A stretch of 8,341 nucleotides of DNA. Source: a virus (taxonomy: Duplodnaviria; Heunggongvirae; Uroviricota; Caudoviricetes). Below are positions 1 to 8,341 of the stretch, in pieces (position 1 is the first letter of the stretch; each line of letters opens with the position of its first letter). The position numbers and the translations under genes were made by a program. The notes below the pieces were generated by a model. The model was given only the letters and a program-made list of their open reading frames with translations, was not told where the DNA came from and ran no database searches. The DNA lies in IMG/VR virus record IMGVR_UViG_2529292921_000006; one strand, given 5' to 3'.

Positions 1-818
<818 letters not shown>

Positions 819-820
<2 letters not shown>

Positions 821-824
821 GAGG
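819..824 (+). promoter_or_regulatory. Shine-Dalgarno AGGAGG for terminase large subunit
   Basis: AGGAGG lies 4 nt upstream of ATG 829. Confidence 0.6.
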
Positions 825-828
825 AATA

Positions 829-2331
829 ATGGGTTTTTCATCAGCCCGAAATTTGGGAAGGGACATATCGGCAGGATTTTCTCCACCACGTCGCATGCCG
901 ATTTCGGAGGCTGTTAAAAAATTCATGCGTGTTCCCAAGGGGGCTGGTAACTCGGTGCCATGGGATCCTGAACTGACACCCTACATCATTGAGCCCATGA
1001 ACTGCCTGGCATCGCGTGAATACGATGCGGTGATTTTTGTTGGTCCTGCGCGAACAGGGAAGACCATTGGTCTGATCGATGGATGGATTGTCTATACCAT
1101 CGTTTGCGATCCTTCGGACATGCTCGTTGTGCAGATGACCGAAGATAAGGCCCGCGAGCATTCAAAAAAGCGCCTCGACAGAACGTTCAGAAGCAGTGCG
1201 GCGGTAAAGAAAAGAATGAGTCCACGTCGTAATGACAATAATGTCCATGATAAGACGTTCAGGGATGGCTCGTTCCTTAAAATTGGTTGGCCCTCGGTCA
1301 ACATTATGTCGTCGTCGGATTACCGGTTTGTCGCCTTAACCGATTACGACCGTTTTCCGGAGAATATCGACAGCGAGGGTGATGGTTTCTCCCTGGCCTC
1401 AAAACGTACCACCACATTTATGTCCTCCGGGATGACTCTGGTGGAGAGCTCGCCGGGACGTGACATCTGCGACAGCAAATGGCGACGTAAGTCGCCTCAT
1501 GAAGCGCCACCGACGACTGGTATTCTTTCCCTTTACAATCGTGGTGACCGCCGCCGCTGGTACTGGCCATGTCCGCACTGCGGTGAATATTTTCAGCCAG
1601 CCATGGATGCCATGACCGGCTACCGTAATGAACCGGATCCCTTTAAAGCCAGTGAGGCGGCGTATCTACTTTGCCCGCACTGCAGCGGCATTATCACTGC
1701 GGAGAAAAAGCGTGAGCTCAATAGTGCAGGAGTCTGGTTGCGTGAAGGTCAGGTCATTGATTGTAACGGCAACGTTTCCGGTGAACCGCGCCGCTCCCGT
1801 ATCGCCAGTTTCTGGATGGAAGGGCCAGCTGCTGCGTATCAGACCTGGGCGCAACTGGTTTACAAATTACTGACTGCAGAACAGGAGTATGAAGCGACAG
1901 GAAGTGAAGAAACACTCAGGGCGGTTATCAACACCGACTGGGGATTACCTTATCTTCCCCGCGCCAGCATGGAGCAACGAAAAAGTGAACTGCTTGAGCA
2001 GCGGGCAGAGCCAGTTCATTCCCGCAGTGTGCCGGATGGCGTTAATTTTCTTGTGGCGACAGTGGATGTGCAGGCGGGACGTCATCGCCGTTTTGTGGTT
2101 CAGGTAACGGGCTATGGCAGCCGTGGCGAACGCTGGATTATTGATCGTTACAACATCACGCAGTCATTGCGCGGTGACAGCGACGGGGAGAGCCAGCGAA
2201 TTGATCCGGCCAGCTATCCGGAAGACTGGGATGTCCTGCTGACGGATGTTTTTCATAAAAGACTGGCCGCTGGCCTCCGATCCTTCTCAACAAATGCGAC
2301 TGATGGCAATGGCGGTGGACTCCGGCGGTGA
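829..2331 (+). CDS. Terminase large subunit (lambda gpA family), N-terminal ATPase and central portion; reading frame breaks near 2245-2262
   Basis: Strong SD upstream of ATG 829. Canonical Walker A FVGPARTGKT. Motifs WYWPCPHCGEYFQ and LLCPHCSGII match the lambda gpA CPHCGE region; FWMEGPAAAYQTWAQLV and VNFLVATVDVQAGRH...WIIDRYNI match further gpA blocks. The final ~25 residues (AAGLRSFSTNATDGNGGGLRR) look out-of-frame. Confidence 0.85.
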   Translation: MGFSSARNLGRDISAGFSPPRRMPISEAVKKFMRVPKGAGNSVPWDPELTPYIIEPMNCLASREYDAVIFVGPARTGKTIGLIDGWIVYTIVCDPSDMLVVQMTEDKAREHSKKRLDRTFRSSAAVKKRMSPRRNDNNVHDKTFRDGSFLKIGWPSVNIMSSSDYRFVALTDYDRFPENIDSEGDGFSLASKRTTTFMSSGMTLVESSPGRDICDSKWRRKSPHEAPPTTGILSLYNRGDRRRWYWPCPHCGEYFQPAMDAMTGYRNEPDPFKASEAAYLLCPHCSGIITAEKKRELNSAGVWLREGQVIDCNGNVSGEPRRSRIASFWMEGPAAAYQTWAQLVYKLLTAEQEYEATGSEETLRAVINTDWGLPYLPRASMEQRKSELLEQRAEPVHSRSVPDGVNFLVATVDVQAGRHRRFVVQVTGYGSRGERWIIDRYNITQSLRGDSDGESQRIDPASYPEDWDVLLTDVFHKRLAAGLRSFSTNATDGNGGGLRR

Positions 2332-2929
2332 AGACGGGGTCACTGATAATGCCTATAAATTCTGGCGTCGTTGCCGTCGTGATGGCCTTGGTAAACGTAT
2401 TTACCTGTTTAAGGGCGACAGCATCCGGCGCGCAAAACTGATCACCCGTACATTCCCTGATAACACCGGACGAACGGGCCGACGGGCGCAGGCCGCAGGT
2501 GATGTGCCGCTCTGGCTTCTTCAGACGGATGCCCTGAAAGACCGGGTAAATAACGCGTTATGGCGTGACTCGCCAGGTCCCGGCTATGTGCATTTCCCTG
2601 ACTGGCTGGGGAGCTGGTTTTACGACGAACTGACGTATGAAGAGCGGAGCAGTGACGGGAAATGGAGTAAGCCGGGTCGCGGTGCCAACGAAGCTTTTGA
2701 CCTGATGGTGTATGCCGAGGCTCTGGTCATTCTGCATGGATACGAAAAGATCCGCTGGCCGGATGCACCGGAGTGGGCGAGCCGGGAAACCTGGCTGGAG
2801 TGTGTCCCGGACAGTACCGAACCGTCATCCTCACCGGAACCGGTATCCACGCCTGTTAAAAAACAAAAACGGAAGAAAACAGTAACTGACGATGTTAACC
2901 CCTGGCTGACTTCCGGAGGATGGTTATGA
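2246..2929 (+). CDS. Terminase large subunit, C-terminal nuclease portion (continuation of 829-2331 in the +1 frame)
   Basis: Translation ...LASDPSQQMRLMAMAVDSGGEDGVTDNAYKF...IYLFKGDS...PGYVHFPDW...KWSKPGRGANEAFDLMVYAEAL parallels the lambda gpA C-terminus (...ICWDTGGIDPT...IPIKGAS...PGAVHFPNN...NEALDCFVYALAA). This frame opens only at 2243 (in-frame TGA 2240-2242), so it is a continuation rather than an independent gene. Confidence 0.8.
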   Translation: MFFIKDWPLASDPSQQMRLMAMAVDSGGEDGVTDNAYKFWRRCRRDGLGKRIYLFKGDSIRRAKLITRTFPDNTGRTGRRAQAAGDVPLWLLQTDALKDRVNNALWRDSPGPGYVHFPDWLGSWFYDELTYEERSSDGKWSKPGRGANEAFDLMVYAEALVILHGYEKIRWPDAPEWASRETWLECVPDSTEPSSSPEPVSTPVKKQKRKKTVTDDVNPWLTSGGWL

Positions 2930-3138
2930 ACCAGAATGATATCGAAGCCATGATTCAGCGTTATACGGAAGCTGAAATGGCGGTGCTGGACGGAAAATCC
3001 GTCACCTTTAATGGTCAGCAGATGACCATGGAAAACTTATCTGAGATCCGGCAGGGACGGCAGGAGTGGGAGCGCCGCCTTGCGGCTCTGATTACACGAC
3101 GACGGGGGCATCCCGGGTATCGGCTGGCGAGGTTCTGA
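2926..3138 (+). CDS. Head-tail joining protein, lambda gpW family
   Basis: 70 aa. The C-terminus ...LITRRRGHPGYRLARF resembles the lambda gpW C-terminus (...RRRGPAGFYV). GGAGG at 2915-2919 lies 6 nt before ATG 2926, which overlaps the terL stop (ATGA). The ORF-track start at 2920 leaves no room for an SD. Confidence 0.8.
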   Translation: MNQNDIEAMIQRYTEAEMAVLDGKSVTFNGQQMTMENLSEIRQGRQEWERRLAALITRRRGHPGYRLARF

Positions 3139-4646
3139 TGGCAATTCTTGATGATGTGATTGGCGTTTTTTCACCAGGATGGAAAGCGGCAAGGCTGCGT
3201 TCCCGTGCGGTGATCCAGGCTTATGAGGCCGTAAAAACGACGCGGACACACAAAGCCCGACGGGAGAACCGAACTGCCGACCAGTTAAGCCAGTACGGGG
3301 CCGTGTCGTTACGTGAGCAGGCCCGTTACCTTGATAACAACCACGATCTGGTTATTGGTGTATTTGACAAGCTGGAAGAACGGGTGGTGGGGAAAAACGG
3401 GATTATTGTCGAGCCACATCCGGTATTACGCAATGGGGCCATTGCCCGTGATCTGGCAGCGGAGATTCGCACCCGATGGAGTGAATGGTCTGTCAGCCCG
3501 GAAGTCACCGGGCAGTTTACCCGTCCGATGCTGGAACGTCTGATGCTGCGTACCTGGCTGCGCGATGGTGAGGTGTTTGCCCAGATGGTTTCCGGGCGCA
3601 TAAACAGCCTGACGCCTTCTGCCGGTGTTCATTTCTGGCTGGAGGCGCTCGAGCCGGACTTTATTCCCATGACCAGAGATGAGAGCAACAGGCTGAATCA
3701 GGGCGTGTTTGTTGATGACTGGGGGCGTCCCGAAAAATATCTGGTGTATAAAAGCCGTCCCGTATCCGGGCGGCAGATGGAAACCAAAGAAGTGGATGCA
3801 GAGCGAATGCTGCATCTTAAATTTGTTCGCCGTCTGCACCAGATGCGCGGGACGTCTTTGTTGTCCGGTGTGCTGATCCGCCTCAGTGCCCTGAAAGAGT
3901 ATGAAGATTCTGAGCTGACTGCAGCAAGGATCGCCGCTGCTCTGGGGATGTACATCCGGAAAGGCGACGGGCAGAGCTATGAACCGGATGGTAATGGCAG
4001 CAAGGAGAATGAACGCGAGCTTACCATTCAGCCAGGCATTATTTACGACGATCTGAAACCCGGCGAAGAAATCGGAATGGTGAAGTCGGATCGTCCCAAT
4101 CCTAACCTTGAAACTTTTCGTAATGGTCAGTTGCGTGCCGTGGCGGCGGGCAGTCGTCTGAGTTTTTCCAGTACGGCACGCAACTATGACGGCACTTACA
4201 GCGCCCAGCGTCGGGAACTGGTTGAGTCTACTGATGGCTACCTGATCCTGCAGGACTGGTTTATTGGTGCCGTCACCCGCCCGATGTATCGTGCCTGGCT
4301 GAAACAGGCTGTGGCATCCGGTGTTATCAGGCTACCCCGCGATCTTGACCGTTCTTCACTGTATACCGCGGTGTATTCCGGACCAGTGATGCCGTGGATT
4401 GACCCTGTTAAGGAGGCTGAGGCCTGGAAAATCCAGATTCGTGGTGGAGCGGCGACAGAATCAGACTGGGTACGTGCAGGTGGTCGTAATCCGGATGATG
4501 TCAAACGTCGGCGCAAGGCCGAAATTGATGAAAACCGCAAGCTGGATCTGGTATTTGATACCGATCCGGCCAGTGATAAAGGAGGCAGCAGTGCCGCAAC
4601 GAAACGACAGGAGCCACAGCACACCGACGACCAGTCCGAAGAATAA
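3138..4646 (+). CDS. Portal protein (lambda gpB family)
   Basis: 502 aa from ATG 3138, which overlaps the gpW stop (TGATG). Its size and position after terL/gpW fit a portal, and the C-terminal half (...SAQRRELVESTDGYLILQDWFIGAVTRPMYRAWLKQAV...) has a lambda-portal-like pattern. The upstream extension to 3066 in the ORF track overlaps gpW and is not adopted. Confidence 0.85.
   Translation: MAILDDVIGVFSPGWKAARLRSRAVIQAYEAVKTTRTHKARRENRTADQLSQYGAVSLREQARYLDNNHDLVIGVFDKLEERVVGKNGIIVEPHPVLRNGAIARDLAAEIRTRWSEWSVSPEVTGQFTRPMLERLMLRTWLRDGEVFAQMVSGRINSLTPSAGVHFWLEALEPDFIPMTRDESNRLNQGVFVDDWGRPEKYLVYKSRPVSGRQMETKEVDAERMLHLKFVRRLHQMRGTSLLSGVLIRLSALKEYEDSELTAARIAAALGMYIRKGDGQSYEPDGNGSKENERELTIQPGIIYDDLKPGEEIGMVKSDRPNPNLETFRNGQLRAVAAGSRLSFSSTARNYDGTYSAQRRELVESTDGYLILQDWFIGAVTRPMYRAWLKQAVASGVIRLPRDLDRSSLYTAVYSGPVMPWIDPVKEAEAWKIQIRGGAATESDWVRAGGRNPDDVKRRRKAEIDENRKLDLVFDTDPASDKGGSSAATKRQEPQHTDDQSEE
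4581..4585 (+). promoter_or_regulatory. Shine-Dalgarno GGAGG for the prohead protease (GTG start)
   Basis: AAAGGAGG followed by a 5-nt spacer and GTG 4591. Confidence 0.5.
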
Positions 4647-5286
4647 TTCCTGGTTCAGGATGCAGGCTGGTCACCAGAGTGACGCGGATATTTATATTTA
4701 TGACGAGATTGGTTTCTGGGGTGTTACAGCGAAGCAGTTTATCAGTGATCTGAATGCACTGGGCGATATCACCCACATTAATCTCCATATTAATTCACCG
4801 GGTGGCGATGTCTTTGAAGGCATCGCCATTTTTAATGCGCTGAAAACACATGGTGCGTCCATTACCGTTTATGTCGACGGTGTGGCGGCGTCAATGGCGT
4901 CGGTCATTGCGATGGTGGGAAACCCGGTCATTATGCCGGAAAACACCTTCATGATGATTCATAAACCATTTGGCTTTACGGGCGGTGATGCGGAGGACAT
5001 GCGCACCTATGCCGACCTGCTCGATAAGGTTGAGGCGGTTCTGTTACCCGCTTATGCACAGAAAACCGGGAAAACCACCGATGAAATTGCTGCCATGCTG
5101 GCGGATGAGACCTGGATGTCCGGTGCCGAATGTCTGGCACATGGATTTGCTGATCAGGTGACGCCAGCCGTTAAGGCAATGGCATGTATTCAGTCAAAAC
5201 GTACAGAGGAATTTAAAAAGATGCCGGAATCCATTCGAAACATGATTTACTCCGCCACGCAACAGTGCTCCACGCGTACAGGATGA
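4591..5286 (+). CDS. Prohead (head maturation) protease, ClpP-like serine protease (S14 family)
   Basis: ClpP-fold motifs: ...SWFRMQAGHQSDADIYIYDEIGFWG..., INSPGGDVFEGIAIFNAL, active-site-like GVAASMASVIA, and MMIHKP (His). Start chosen at GTG 4591 because of the strong SD and because it keeps the SWFR N-terminal motif; ATG 4660 is an alternative. The stop TGA 5284-5286 overlaps an ATG at 5283 (ATGA). Confidence 0.8.
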   Translation: MPQRNDRSHSTPTTSPKNNSWFRMQAGHQSDADIYIYDEIGFWGVTAKQFISDLNALGDITHINLHINSPGGDVFEGIAIFNALKTHGASITVYVDGVAASMASVIAMVGNPVIMPENTFMMIHKPFGFTGGDAEDMRTYADLLDKVEAVLLPAYAQKTGKTTDEIAAMLADETWMSGAECLAHGFADQVTPAVKAMACIQSKRTEEFKKMPESIRNMIYSATQQCSTRTG

Positions 5287-5413
5287 TGGACCTGCAGCCT
5301 CCCGGACGCCAGTGCAAGGCAGCAGCACCTGTGGTGGATGAAAACAGTATCCGTGCGCAGGTACTGGCAGAGCAAAAAAGCGCGTGTAAAACGGTATTAA
5401 TGATCTGTTTGCC

Positions 5414-6622
5414 ATGTTTGGCGGGCGTTATCAGACGCTGCAGGCTCAGTGTCTTGCCGATCCTGAATGTTCGCTGGAGCAGGCCCGCGAAAAGCTGTTG
5501 AACGAGATGGGGCGCGAGTCCACGCCATCCAATAAAAATACCCCGGCTCATATTTATGCCGGTAACGGTAATTTTGTGGGGGACGGGATCCGCCAGGCGC
5601 TGATGGCGCGTGCCGGATTTGAAAAAACCGAACGTGATAATGTCTACAACGGGATGACCCTGCGTGAATATGCCCGTATGTCACTGACTGAACGGGGTAT
5701 TGGGGTTTCCAGTTATAACCCGATGCAGATGGTCGGTGCGGCGTTCACACACAGTACGTCTGACTTCGGTAATATTCTGCTGGATGTTTCGAACAAAGCC
5801 ATTCTGCAGGGCTGGGAAGATGCCCCTGAAACCTATGAACAGTGGACGCGGAAAGGTCAGTTGTCTGATTTTAAAATTGCCCATCGTGTGGGTATGGGGG
5901 GCTTCAGTGCTCTGCGTCAGGTGCGTGAAGGGGCGGAATATAAATACGTCACCACCGGAGATAAACAGGCCACTATTGCACTGGCGACCTATGGCGAGCT
6001 GTTCAGTATCACCCGTCAGGCCATTATCAATGATGATCTGAATATGCTGACCGATGTCCCGATGAAACTGGGCCGTGCGGCGAAATCCACTATTGCCGAT
6101 CTGGTTTATGCCATTCTGACGTCTAACCCGAAAATCTCCACAGATAATGTAAGTCTGTTCGATAAAGCGAAACATGCAAACGTACTGGAGAGCGCTGCAA
6201 TGGACGTGGCATCGCTGGATAAAGCCCGCCAGTTGATGCGCGTTCAGAAAGAGGGGGAGCGTCATCTGAATATTCGTCCTGCGTTCGTACTGGTACCGAC
6301 GGCGATGGAGTCTGTTGCTAACCAGGTCATTCGCTCCTCAAGTGTCAAGGGGGCTGACATTAACGCCGGTATTATTAACCCGGTGAAAGATTTTGCGACC
6401 GTTATTGCAGAGCCTCGTCTTGATGATAACAGCCAGACCACCTTCTACCTGGCTGCGTCCAAAGGCTCCGATACGATTGAAGTGGCTTATCTCAACGGTG
6501 TGGATACGCCATATATTGATCAGATGGAGGGCTTCAGTGTGGATGGCGTGACAACGAAAGTGCGTATTGACGCCGGTGTCGCGCCAGTTGATCACCGCGG
6601 TCTGGTGAAATGTACGGCGTAA
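5414..6622 (+). CDS. Major capsid protein (probably HK97-fold with an N-terminal scaffold-like region); 5' end uncertain
   Basis: 402-aa ORF directly downstream of the portal and prohead protease and upstream of a decoration-like gene and gpFII; followed by a terminator-like hairpin. The first ATG (5414) has no recognisable SD, and the frame opens only at 5390. See the finding on a possible frameshifted 5' extension from 5283. Confidence 0.75.
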   Translation: MFGGRYQTLQAQCLADPECSLEQAREKLLNEMGRESTPSNKNTPAHIYAGNGNFVGDGIRQALMARAGFEKTERDNVYNGMTLREYARMSLTERGIGVSSYNPMQMVGAAFTHSTSDFGNILLDVSNKAILQGWEDAPETYEQWTRKGQLSDFKIAHRVGMGGFSALRQVREGAEYKYVTTGDKQATIALATYGELFSITRQAIINDDLNMLTDVPMKLGRAAKSTIADLVYAILTSNPKISTDNVSLFDKAKHANVLESAAMDVASLDKARQLMRVQKEGERHLNIRPAFVLVPTAMESVANQVIRSSSVKGADINAGIINPVKDFATVIAEPRLDDNSQTTFYLAASKGSDTIEVAYLNGVDTPYIDQMEGFSVDGVTTKVRIDAGVAPVDHRGLVKCTA

Positions 6623-6645
6623 ACGTCGCAGACAACAACTCTGAT

Positions 6646-6665
6646 GGCCCGTAAGGGCTTTTTTT
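6646..6665 (+). terminator. Weak rho-independent terminator/attenuator-like hairpin after the capsid gene
   Basis: GGCCC-GUAA-GGGCU stem-loop (4-5 bp GC stem, tetraloop) followed by a run of 7 T (6659-6665), 24 nt after the capsid stop. Confidence 0.35.
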
Positions 6666-6708
6666 GTACCTGAAATCAGCCCCTGAACGGGGCTGTGCGG
6701 AGACAGTT

Positions 6709-7032
6709 ATGGCAAAGAATTTTGTAGAAGAAGGAAAAACGGTGGCGATTGTTGCCAGTGCAGCCATCAGCAGCGGAGATCTGGTGCAGGTGGGTGATGT
6801 TTTTGCGGTGGCGCTGACCGATATTCCACAGGGTGAAACAGGCGACGGCATGACCGAAGGTGTGTTTATCCTGCCTAAGCTGAAAACGGATGACATGAAA
6901 ACGGGTAAGAAGGTTTATCTGAAGTCCGGAAAAGTTCAGCTGACTAACAGCGGCTCTGATCCGCTGGTCGGGGTTGTCTGGGCAGATGCCGGAACCAGTG
7001 CAGAAGAAGTGCCGGTAAAACTCAATGTCTGA
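6709..7032 (+). CDS. Small head protein, putative capsid decoration/cement protein (DUF2190-like); function tentative
   Basis: 108 aa from ATG 6709 with GGAG 6 nt upstream. MAKNFVEEGKTVAIVASAAISSGDLVQVGDVFAVALTDIPQGETGDG...GVFILPK... resembles, from memory, the small beta-rich proteins encoded next to capsid genes. The ORF-track start at TTG 6664 is not adopted. Confidence 0.5.
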   Translation: MAKNFVEEGKTVAIVASAAISSGDLVQVGDVFAVALTDIPQGETGDGMTEGVFILPKLKTDDMKTGKKVYLKSGKVQLTNSGSDPLVGVVWADAGTSAEEVPVKLNV

Positions 7033-7300
7033 TCCCTTTTCTCGGCTGGCAGCGCGTATGGATGCGATCACGGTCAGAAAGATGGGAAAGACAGCCTCGA
7101 TTAATGATGTCGATATGGCTGTGATCCCGGGCGAAACACTGGCAGAGCTGAATGCTCTGTCCGGACCTGCTGTCTCTCTGGTGGTGTTTTCTTTGGGATA
7201 CCGCCCACGGCGCGGGGATCGCGTTGTTTATGACGGACAACATTGGACGGTCACACGGCATGAACGCTTTAACGGTAAGCCAATGATCTTTATTGAGTAA
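7025..7300 (+). CDS. Head-tail joining / head completion protein, lambda gpFII-like
   Basis: 91 aa. N-terminus MSDPFSRLAARMDAITVRKMGKTAS parallels lambda FII (MADFDNLFDAAIARADETIRGYMGTSA) and the conserved RRGD motif is present (PRRGDRVVYDGQHW). Overlaps the preceding gene by 8 nt. Confidence 0.75.
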   Translation: MSDPFSRLAARMDAITVRKMGKTASINDVDMAVIPGETLAELNALSGPAVSLVVFSLGYRPRRGDRVVYDGQHWTVTRHERFNGKPMIFIE

Positions 7301-7311
7301 AGAGGTGTGGG

Positions 7312-7890
7312 ATGAAGGGGCTTGAGAATGCCATCCGCAATCTGAACAGCCTTGATACCCGTATGGTGCCACAGGCCAGCGCATGGGCGATAAACCGTGT
7401 GGCACAGAAAGCGGTCTCGGTTGCCACCCGGCAGGTTGCCGGGAATACCGTTGCGGGAGATAACCAGGTGAAAGGGATACCCCTGAAACTGGTACGTCAG
7501 CGTGTCCGGGTGTTTAAAGCCAGTCCGTCAGGAAAAATGACGGCCAGGATCCGCGTCAACCGGGGCAATCTGCCCGCCATTAAGCTGGGGACAGCCCGGG
7601 TCAGACTGGCCCGGCGTGGTGGAAAACTGCAGTACCGTGGCAGTGTGCTGAAGGTGGGTAAATATCTTTTCCGGGATGCGTTTATTCAGCAACTGGCGAA
7701 TGGTCGCTGGCATGTGATGCGGCGTATTGATGGCAAAAATCGTTACCCCATTGATGTGGTGAAAATCCCGTTGTCCGGACCGCTGACACAGGCATTTGAA
7801 GATGCCCGCGACCGCATCATTGCTGCGGAAATGCCGAAACAGTTGGGTTATGCACTGAAACAACAACTGAGGTTATGGCTGACCCGATGA
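7312..7890 (+). CDS. Tail completion protein, lambda gpZ family
   Basis: 192 aa, the same length as lambda gpZ. Matching blocks include MKGLENAIRNL, AWAINRVAQ, IRVNRGNLPAIKLG, NGRWHVMRRIDGKNRYPIDVVKIP and ELGYALKQQLRLWLTR. SD AGAGG lies 6 nt upstream of ATG 7312. Confidence 0.85.
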   Translation: MKGLENAIRNLNSLDTRMVPQASAWAINRVAQKAVSVATRQVAGNTVAGDNQVKGIPLKLVRQRVRVFKASPSGKMTARIRVNRGNLPAIKLGTARVRLARRGGKLQYRGSVLKVGKYLFRDAFIQQLANGRWHVMRRIDGKNRYPIDVVKIPLSGPLTQAFEDARDRIIAAEMPKQLGYALKQQLRLWLTR

Positions 7891-8288
7891 ACCGACATAC
7901 ACAAATCCGCCAGGTCGTACTGGCACGCCTTCGGGAACAGTGTGGAGACAGCGCCACGTTTTTTGACGGGCTTCCGGCATTTGTTGATGCGCAGGAACTG
8001 CCTGCCGTGTCGGTGTGGCTGAGTGATGCTCAGTACACCGGAAAAATGACGGATGAAGATGACTGGCAGGCTGTTCTGCATATTGCTGTCTTCATCCGGG
8101 CACAAGCACCGGATTCAGAGCTGGATATGTGGATGGAGAGCACCATTTTCCCGGCCCTGAATGATGTACCGGCACTTTCCGGACTCATCGACACCCTGAT
8201 CCCACTCGGTTTTAACTATCAACGTGATAATGAGATGGCCACCTGGGCGATGGCGGAAATCACGTACCAGATCACGTACACGAATTAA
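7887..8288 (+). CDS. Tail terminator protein, lambda gpU family
   Basis: MNRHTQIRQVVLARL...ATFFDG...AVSVWLSDAQYTG...PDSELDMWMES...PALSGLI...ITYQITYTN parallels lambda gpU (MKHTELRAAVLDAL...ATFFDG...AEYTG...PDSELDAWMES...TYVITYEM). ATG 7887 overlaps the gpZ stop (ATGA). The upstream ATG 7875 is in frame, but its SD spacing is only 2 nt. Confidence 0.85.
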   Translation: MNRHTQIRQVVLARLREQCGDSATFFDGLPAFVDAQELPAVSVWLSDAQYTGKMTDEDDWQAVLHIAVFIRAQAPDSELDMWMESTIFPALNDVPALSGLIDTLIPLGFNYQRDNEMATWAMAEITYQITYTN

Positions 8289-8293
8289 GGAGG
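8288..8293 (+). promoter_or_regulatory. Shine-Dalgarno AGGAGG for the major tail protein gene
   Basis: AAGGAGGTGG with a 5-nt spacer to ATG 8299. Confidence 0.6.
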
Positions 8294-8298
8294 TGGTA

Positions 8299-8341
8299 AT
8301 GACCACACCAAATCCACTGGCAAAAACGAAAGGTGCGGGAA
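8299..8341 (+). CDS. Major tail protein, lambda gpV family; first 14 codons only, continues beyond window end
   Basis: MTTPNPLAKTKGAG parallels the lambda gpV N-terminus (MPVPNPTMPVKGAGTT...). Strong SD upstream. Follows gpZ and gpU in the lambda order. Confidence 0.7.
   Translation, partial: MTTPNPLAKTKGAG

Follow-up and report, generated by a model that had tools for sequence, protein, structure and literature searches.

The DNA that we analyzed (hereafter the window, 8,341 bp) is the complete contig AIEW01000013.1 from GCA_000249075.2, a draft whole-genome shotgun assembly of E. coli DEC1B; DEC 1B is also the strain given for AIEW elsewhere (PMC4959244), and the names EHU17839.1 and ECDEC1B_0871 occur among the protein records of the contig. 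The contig is short and repeat-bounded, and the end of an IS100 element abuts a truncated terS gene at 634/635. The head module that it carries is of the type found in phages cdtI and mEp460 and prophage Sp3, with the portal gene followed by a protease–capsid fusion gene and then by a DUF2190/cement (decoration) gene. Phage cdtI (NC_009514) aligned to positions 635–8341 of the window in a single alignment with 99.4% identity, and matches of comparable closeness were found in mEp460, Ayreon, phi458, and many E. coli prophages, including Sp3 of O157 Sakai. The gene calls contain 4-nt overlaps at the terL/gpW junction (2303–2929/2926–3138) and the gpZ/gpU junction (7312–7890/7887–8288), as had been reported in a first-pass annotation of this DNA.

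In all of the relatives that we compared, the region that begins after, or overlapping, the portal gene and ends at the capsid stop codon is a single CDS, with an ORF of 652–675 aa. In cdtI this CDS is gp05 (YP_001272518; 4563–6521 in cdtI), which spans the region as one gene. The region is annotated as 'ClpP protease-like protein/scaffold protein' in Ayreon and as 'phage protease/scaffold protein' in Sakai Sp3 (ECs_0829), and RefSeq uses the name 'ClpP-like prohead protease/major capsid protein fusion protein'. In the window, the corresponding protease/scaffold/major capsid protein fusion gene occupies 4591–6622 on the + strand, as do all of the features described below, and on this contig it is interrupted by four 1-bp insertions. 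A Shine–Dalgarno sequence, AAGGAGG (4579–4585), could be read directly from the window 5 nt before a GTG at 4591. The equivalent GTG is the RefSeq start in relatives and yields a 675-aa protein, whereas phage records use a shorter form of 652 aa that starts at the equivalent of ATG 4660. Because an SWF/SWY motif encoded upstream of ATG 4660 is conserved in the Stx2-phage and Pseudomonas-phage homologues, we favor the 675-aa form (the residue numbers below nevertheless follow the 652-aa form used for the phages).

The ClpP-like serine protease domain (4726–5163, residues 23–168) lies intact 5′ of the first insertion and was matched by both Pfam CLP_protease (E = 4e-36) and NF045542 (Clp_rel_HeadMat, 215.8 bits). 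Two of its motifs, AASMAS (containing Ser78) and IHKP (containing His101), were invariant in the homologue alignment and, judging from known ClpP motifs, are probably catalytic. The protease domain is followed by a Pro/Ala-rich linker (~5249–5335) that is variable among the E. coli, Stx2-phage, and Pseudomonas homologues; the indels in this alignment were exclusively in-frame and confined to the linker. After the linker comes a conserved block, (D/T)E..IRA..(L/M)AE...R...I...F, which runs into the capsid domain, and this linker-to-capsid segment is presumably scaffold-like (delta-like). The major capsid protein domain itself (5726–6610, residues 355–649) was matched by Pfam Phage_capsid_4 (E = 1e-53) and also by Mu-like_gpT (E = 4e-8). 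A sequence search of the PDB matched ClpP chains to the protease part (E = 1e-16) and detected no solved relative of the scaffold/capsid part.

Comparing the window with cdtI base by base, we identified six single-base insertions in the window. Four of these fall in the fusion gene, all within 143 bp, and in every case the extra base extends a run that was already there. The first is an extra T at 5246 (run 5246–5248), which converts the TT found in all relatives to TTT and takes the reading out of window frame 1 into frame 2. The second is an extra A at 5316 (run 5316–5317), which converts a single A in all relatives to AA (frame 2 to 3). The third is an extra A at 5379 (run 5374–5379), which converts A5 in all relatives to A6 (frame 3 to 1), and the fourth is an extra A at 5388 (run 5388–5391), which converts A3 in all relatives to A4 and returns the frame from 1 to 2, the frame in which the capsid domain is read. 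The authentic path through the gene accordingly follows window frames 1, 2, 3, 1, and 2, and its piecewise translation reads MPESIRNMITPPRNSAPRVQDDGPAASRTPVQAAAPVVDENSIRAQVLAEQKARVNGINDLFAMFGG... The remaining two insertions lie elsewhere in the window: other E. coli share the extra base at 7270, an ordinary allele, and the one at 2262 splits terL and sits outside any homopolymer. The A1-to-A2 and T2-to-T3 changes extend very short runs, which is less typical of homopolymer over-calling.

When we deleted bases 5246, 5316, 5379, and 5388 and translated the product, the resulting 675-aa fusion was identical (100% identity) to a public protein (WP_143366452.1/STE11338.1), and the 652-aa ORF was 99.4% identical to cdtI gp05, from which it differed at 4 residues. 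The repaired 652-aa ORF also scored 982.9 bits against NF045540 (NCBIfam scaf_prot_MCP1, for which the cut-off is 475 bits), aligning to positions 2–651 of the 652 in the model. As deposited, the gene lacks the single ORF that characterizes this family, with the frame changing four times between 5246 and 5388 and leaving pieces of 208 and 348/402 aa; the four deletions restored it. Repairing terL analogously gave a 699-aa protein that was also an exact match to a public protein (WP_000507040.1/STE11341.1). STE11338.1 and STE11341.1 are neighboring accession numbers.

A tblastn search using the repaired protein found 80 phage records with at least 80% of the protein at one place. The single-ORF layout is thus kept down to Pseudomonas phage vB_Pae_CF165a, which matched residues 1–649 in one piece with 56% identity. 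The repaired window product shares its position and its domain order with the NF045540 members (cdtI gp05, mEp460, Ayreon, ECs_0829, and WP_143366452.1), but whereas those members are uninterrupted, the window copy is cut by four 1-bp insertions that were found nowhere else. The window copy is a disrupted or mis-sequenced member of NF045540; its architecture is not different, and it is not a new variant.

The insertions at 2262, 5246, 5316, 5379, and 5388 are most likely base-calling, consensus, or assembly errors of the draft. Positions 5150–5480 were matched by 2,063 complete E. coli records, none of which reached 99% identity; the best of them matched at 327 of 331 positions, with the four gaps as the sole differences, and no otherwise identical complete record carried even one of the four insertions. 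An exact 40-mer spanning two of the insertions was absent from 185,579 species-representative genomes. Likewise, this contig is the sole recorded source of the two products specific to the frameshifts, a protease stub of 208 aa and a terL stub of 444 aa, and we found no public record of the 402-aa ORF product. Over positions 635–8341, the nearest DNA, UFZD01000005.1, differed from the window by 6 substitutions and 5 insertions and by nothing else, and four relatives, two of which are independent read assemblies, were identical to the window over 5200–5440 except at the four bases. The gene is intact in the Logan assemblies of runs SRR490938 and SRR094171. All five of the indels relative to UFZD01000005.1 are +1 insertions, with no deletion among them, and in simulations the probability that at least four of five insertions would fall inside 143 bp of 7.7 kb was ~1e-4. 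Because there are 5 indels to 6 substitutions, and because the indels are all +1 and clustered, as expected of a locally poor draft consensus, we favor an artefactual origin. The insertions conform to the pattern of an artefact (private to one assembly, of the same sign, within runs, clustered, and in near-identical surroundings), with the exception of the one at 2262, which is outside any run. The DEC genomes were presumably sequenced on an error-prone early platform.

It is rather unlikely that the insertions are instead real and that the fusion gene is a true multi-frameshift pseudogene in a decaying DEC1B prophage remnant. Because IS100 interrupts or truncates terS at 634/635 and the portal gene contains three nonsynonymous substitutions that are private to the window, the prophage is possibly defective, and some real decay is plausible. 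Decay would also agree with the frameshift at 2262 in terL and with window-specific changes that all alter proteins, as expected without selection, but it fits less well with 5 indels to 6 substitutions in 7.7 kb relative to the nearest relative, an indel share that we judge to be far above that of natural divergence. Nor would decay by itself predict that all five indels are +1 and that four of them lie so close together, and the insertions are common to no other public sequence. Counted against three relatives, the window-specific substitutions comprised 10 synonymous and 8 nonsynonymous changes, numbers that do not discriminate between sequencing error and decay.

Two more unusual possibilities, which even taken together we consider quite doubtful, are that a protease-free scaffold–capsid protein is initiated at Met188, or that the clustered insertions are real and were produced in a decaying prophage by some unusual process of local insertion. 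The ATG of Met188 (5221–5223) is preceded by an SD-like GAGG at 5206–5209 and is a possible Nu3-like internal start. The residues M188-P189 were invariant in four homologues, down to 59% identity, and a GAGG or GGAG lies 9–11 nt upstream of Met188 in the E. coli, Stx2-phage, and Pseudomonas-phage genes. An internal start at this position in the NF045540 family is speculative; if true, it would set the protease:capsid ratio, analogous to lambda Nu3, which arises from an internal start within C. The question of how stoichiometry is controlled when one protease is tied to every capsid subunit concerns the whole family and is not specific to the window.

With an artefactual origin preferred for the insertions, we return to the ORFs that they leave in the deposited sequence. 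The T inserted at 5246 sends the protease frame into a TGA at 5284–5286, which ends the 208-aa stub and overlaps an ATG at 5283–5285 to form ATGA (5283–5286). From this ATG, frame 3 reads MMDLQPPGRQCKAAAPVVDENSIRAQVLAEQKSACK... until a stop codon at 5501. Further downstream, a 402-aa ORF (5414–6622) opens at an ATG (5414–5416) that is preceded by gtattaatgatctgtttgcc, which contains no purine-rich SD. The first-pass annotation had correctly described the ATGA overlap, the frame that runs to 5501, and the ATG without an SD, and had proposed from them that protease and capsid are separate genes, with the capsid translated either from ATG 5414, after a 127-bp untranslated gap, or from ATG 5283 by ATGA coupling combined with one frameshift. 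ORFs of such shapes are indeed present in the raw sequence, and the 4-nt overlaps at two other junctions resemble the proposed coupling, yet we consider an arrangement of this kind very improbable. Neither 5414 nor 5283 has a ribosome-binding site, none of the relatives has a split gene, and the split pieces occur on this contig only.

The individual elements of the split arrangement fared no better. The ATGA at 5283 falls within the authentic codons CAG GAT GAT GGA (Q-D-D-G), such that its TGA is a premature stop created by the insertion at 5246 and its ATG lies out of frame in GAT GAT, opening a meaningless frame-3 ORF; the apparent coupling is spurious. The tetranucleotide is unremarkable in any case, being found at 61 sites on the + strand of the window, 4 of which lie in 5150–5500. 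The ATG at 5414 is that of an internal methionine, Met251, within the scaffold-like segment and is no initiation codon: the motif FAMFGG that contains it is replaced in the Pseudomonas phage homologue by AFGAFAS, without a Met. When homologues were aligned across the region, as the first-pass annotation had suggested, they extended N-terminally through it, and none began at the equivalent of 5414. All relatives read through, and the supposed gap is coding in every one of them, which refutes a start at 5414 preceded by untranslated DNA. Initiation there would, moreover, leave the product without ~27 residues at the start of the conserved segment (DENSIRAQVLAEQKARVNGINDLFA).

The suspicion that the capsid gene carries a frameshift was partly right, in that a lesion exists, but it consists of four extra bases and not of one missing base. 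Positions 5388–5391 are indeed A4, and adding one base there does move frame 3 into frame 2, the capsid frame. This repair seemed to work because a +1 change is frame-equivalent to removing the extra A's at 5379 and 5388, but it yields ...AEQKSACKNGINDLF, compared with the authentic ...AEQKARVNGINDLF. In the upstream peptide obtained from ATG 5283, only the residues AAAPVVDENSIRAQVLAEQK are authentic, and the ORF from 5283 is out of frame but for 20 residues. In place of the proposed 447-aa ORF starting at 5283, the restored ORF joins the protease, starts at GTG 4591, and encodes 675 aa. Nor is it any longer puzzling that a highly expressed capsid gene should lack an SD, because the fusion ORF has AAGGAGG 5 nt before its GTG. 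Whether the insertions are real or not, there is no capsid-gene start, coupling site, or untranslated gap in 5283–5501. The apparent start is most likely an indel artefact within a well-known gene, from which no new biology follows.

Programmed recoding, in which ribosomal frameshifting or transcriptional slippage at the A6-G (5374–5380) and A4 (5388–5391) runs would restore the full-length product, has the least to recommend it and is close to negligible. AAAAAAG resembles a dnaX-type slippery heptamer, but four separate corrections would be required, and the TTT and AA sites are not slippery. We rejected programmed frameshifting at AAAAAAG on phase (A_AAA_AAG is phased in frame 2, but the authentic frame entering the run is 3), on direction (a −1 slip cannot compensate for an inserted base), and on lack of conservation (none of these runs is lengthened in any relative, and nothing is conserved).

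The intact gene at 4591–6622 would encode one polyprotein comprising a ClpP-like prohead protease, a linker, a scaffold-like segment, and a C-terminal major capsid protein domain, probably translated from the strong ribosome-binding site at the 5′ end of the gene. Together with its neighbors, the gene follows the portal–protease–capsid–decoration order known from lambda/HK97-like head modules. By analogy with the HK97 delta domain and with lambda C/Nu3, the N-terminal parts may act as an internal scaffold and as the maturation protease. As in HK97 and lambda, a procapsid would assemble and would then be trimmed, here by the polyprotein's own protease domain, and we expect by the same analogy that such self-processing releases the mature capsid protein in the prohead.

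The HK97 major capsid protein carries an N-terminal scaffolding delta domain, and the HK97 protease presumably belongs to a family other than the ClpP-like one. HK97-type modules likewise have the order portal, protease, capsid, with a scaffold segment (in the window family, a presumed one) belonging to the capsid protein itself. In HK97-type modules, however, the protease is separate, whereas in the window family a ClpP-like protease is inside the same polypeptide. Lambda C/Nu3, P2 gpO, and the T1-like phages (Drexlerviridae) resemble the window family in having protease and scaffold on one frame but differ from it in encoding the major capsid protein in a gene of its own. The window family unites protease, scaffold, and capsid, which neither the HK97-type group nor the lambda C/Nu3-type group does. 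In the Drexlerviridae, the prohead protease carries a C-terminal scaffolding domain (CBASS preprint, bioRxiv 10.1101/2023.05.21.541620), and this preprint, the D3 preprint, and the KL1/AH2 paper present separate-gene or protease–scaffold arrangements only. Our literature search on protease–scaffold–capsid fusions found no description of the NF045540 family.

The interruption has left its mark on the annotation of the contig: gene callers report two pieces, a stub called 'Clp protease' and a fragment called 'hypothetical / Mu-like gpT' (EHU17841.1, ECDEC1B_0871). A break of this kind could pass for unusual translation initiation or coupling. At five positions of the window (2262, 5246, 5316, 5379, and 5388), the comparison points to a probable error in the consensus of this public draft genome.

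The same prophage module is present in two independent read-level assemblies (L017, Logan SRR490938; L018, Logan SRR094171), where its sequence is almost base-identical to the window, and in both of them the gene encoding the protease/scaffold/major capsid fusion protein is uninterrupted. In terL, a single extra A at position 2262, which lies outside any homopolymer, cuts the gene into calls of 444 and 208 amino acids. Taking out this base yields a 699-amino-acid protein that matches WP_000507040.1 exactly, and the truncated terL product is recorded on this contig only. The portal gene carries three contig-private substitutions (3677, 4188 and 4213), all of which are nonsynonymous relative to its relatives (S>R, N>D and Q>R), and the exact portal protein, EHU17839.1, is likewise recorded on this contig only. 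Either genuine mutation or additional errors in the consensus could account for these substitutions.

Annotations differ on where the fusion gene starts (4579–4660). Phage records place the start at the ATG at 4660, which has a weak ribosome-binding site and gives a 652-amino-acid protein, and RefSeq places it at the GTG at 4591, which lies 5 nucleotides downstream of AAGGAGG, overlaps the 3′ end of the portal gene by 56 nucleotides and gives a 675-amino-acid protein. Because an SWF/SWY motif encoded upstream of 4660 is conserved among distant homologues, sequence comparison favours the longer form, beginning at GTG 4591.

Within the fusion protein, Met188-Pro189 (numbered on the 652-amino-acid form) does not vary in homologues down to 59% identity. 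A GAGG or GGAG lies 9–11 nucleotides upstream of Met188 in the E. coli, Stx2-phage and Pseudomonas-phage genes (window 5206–5223; locus L006, 3347–3365; locus L005, 3048–3064). By analogy with lambda Nu3, Met188 could be a putative internal start, from which a scaffold-capsid product without the protease would be made.

The contig begins within an insertion sequence, with positions 1–634 corresponding to the istA-side end of IS100 (IS21 family), and this end directly joins terS (DUF1441) at a point in mid-gene, in the region 635–820. In E. coli K99B, by contrast, terS is intact and the same IS100 lies 2.3 kb farther upstream of it; the DEC1B terS is therefore interrupted or truncated.

Further downstream, in the FII-like (Gifsy-2 family) gene, positions 7267–7293 differ from phage cdtI by seven clustered substitutions and one indel. 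Because the window agrees here with other E. coli prophages (those of K99B and the UFZD01 genome), this cluster is an ordinary mosaic allele and not a lesion.
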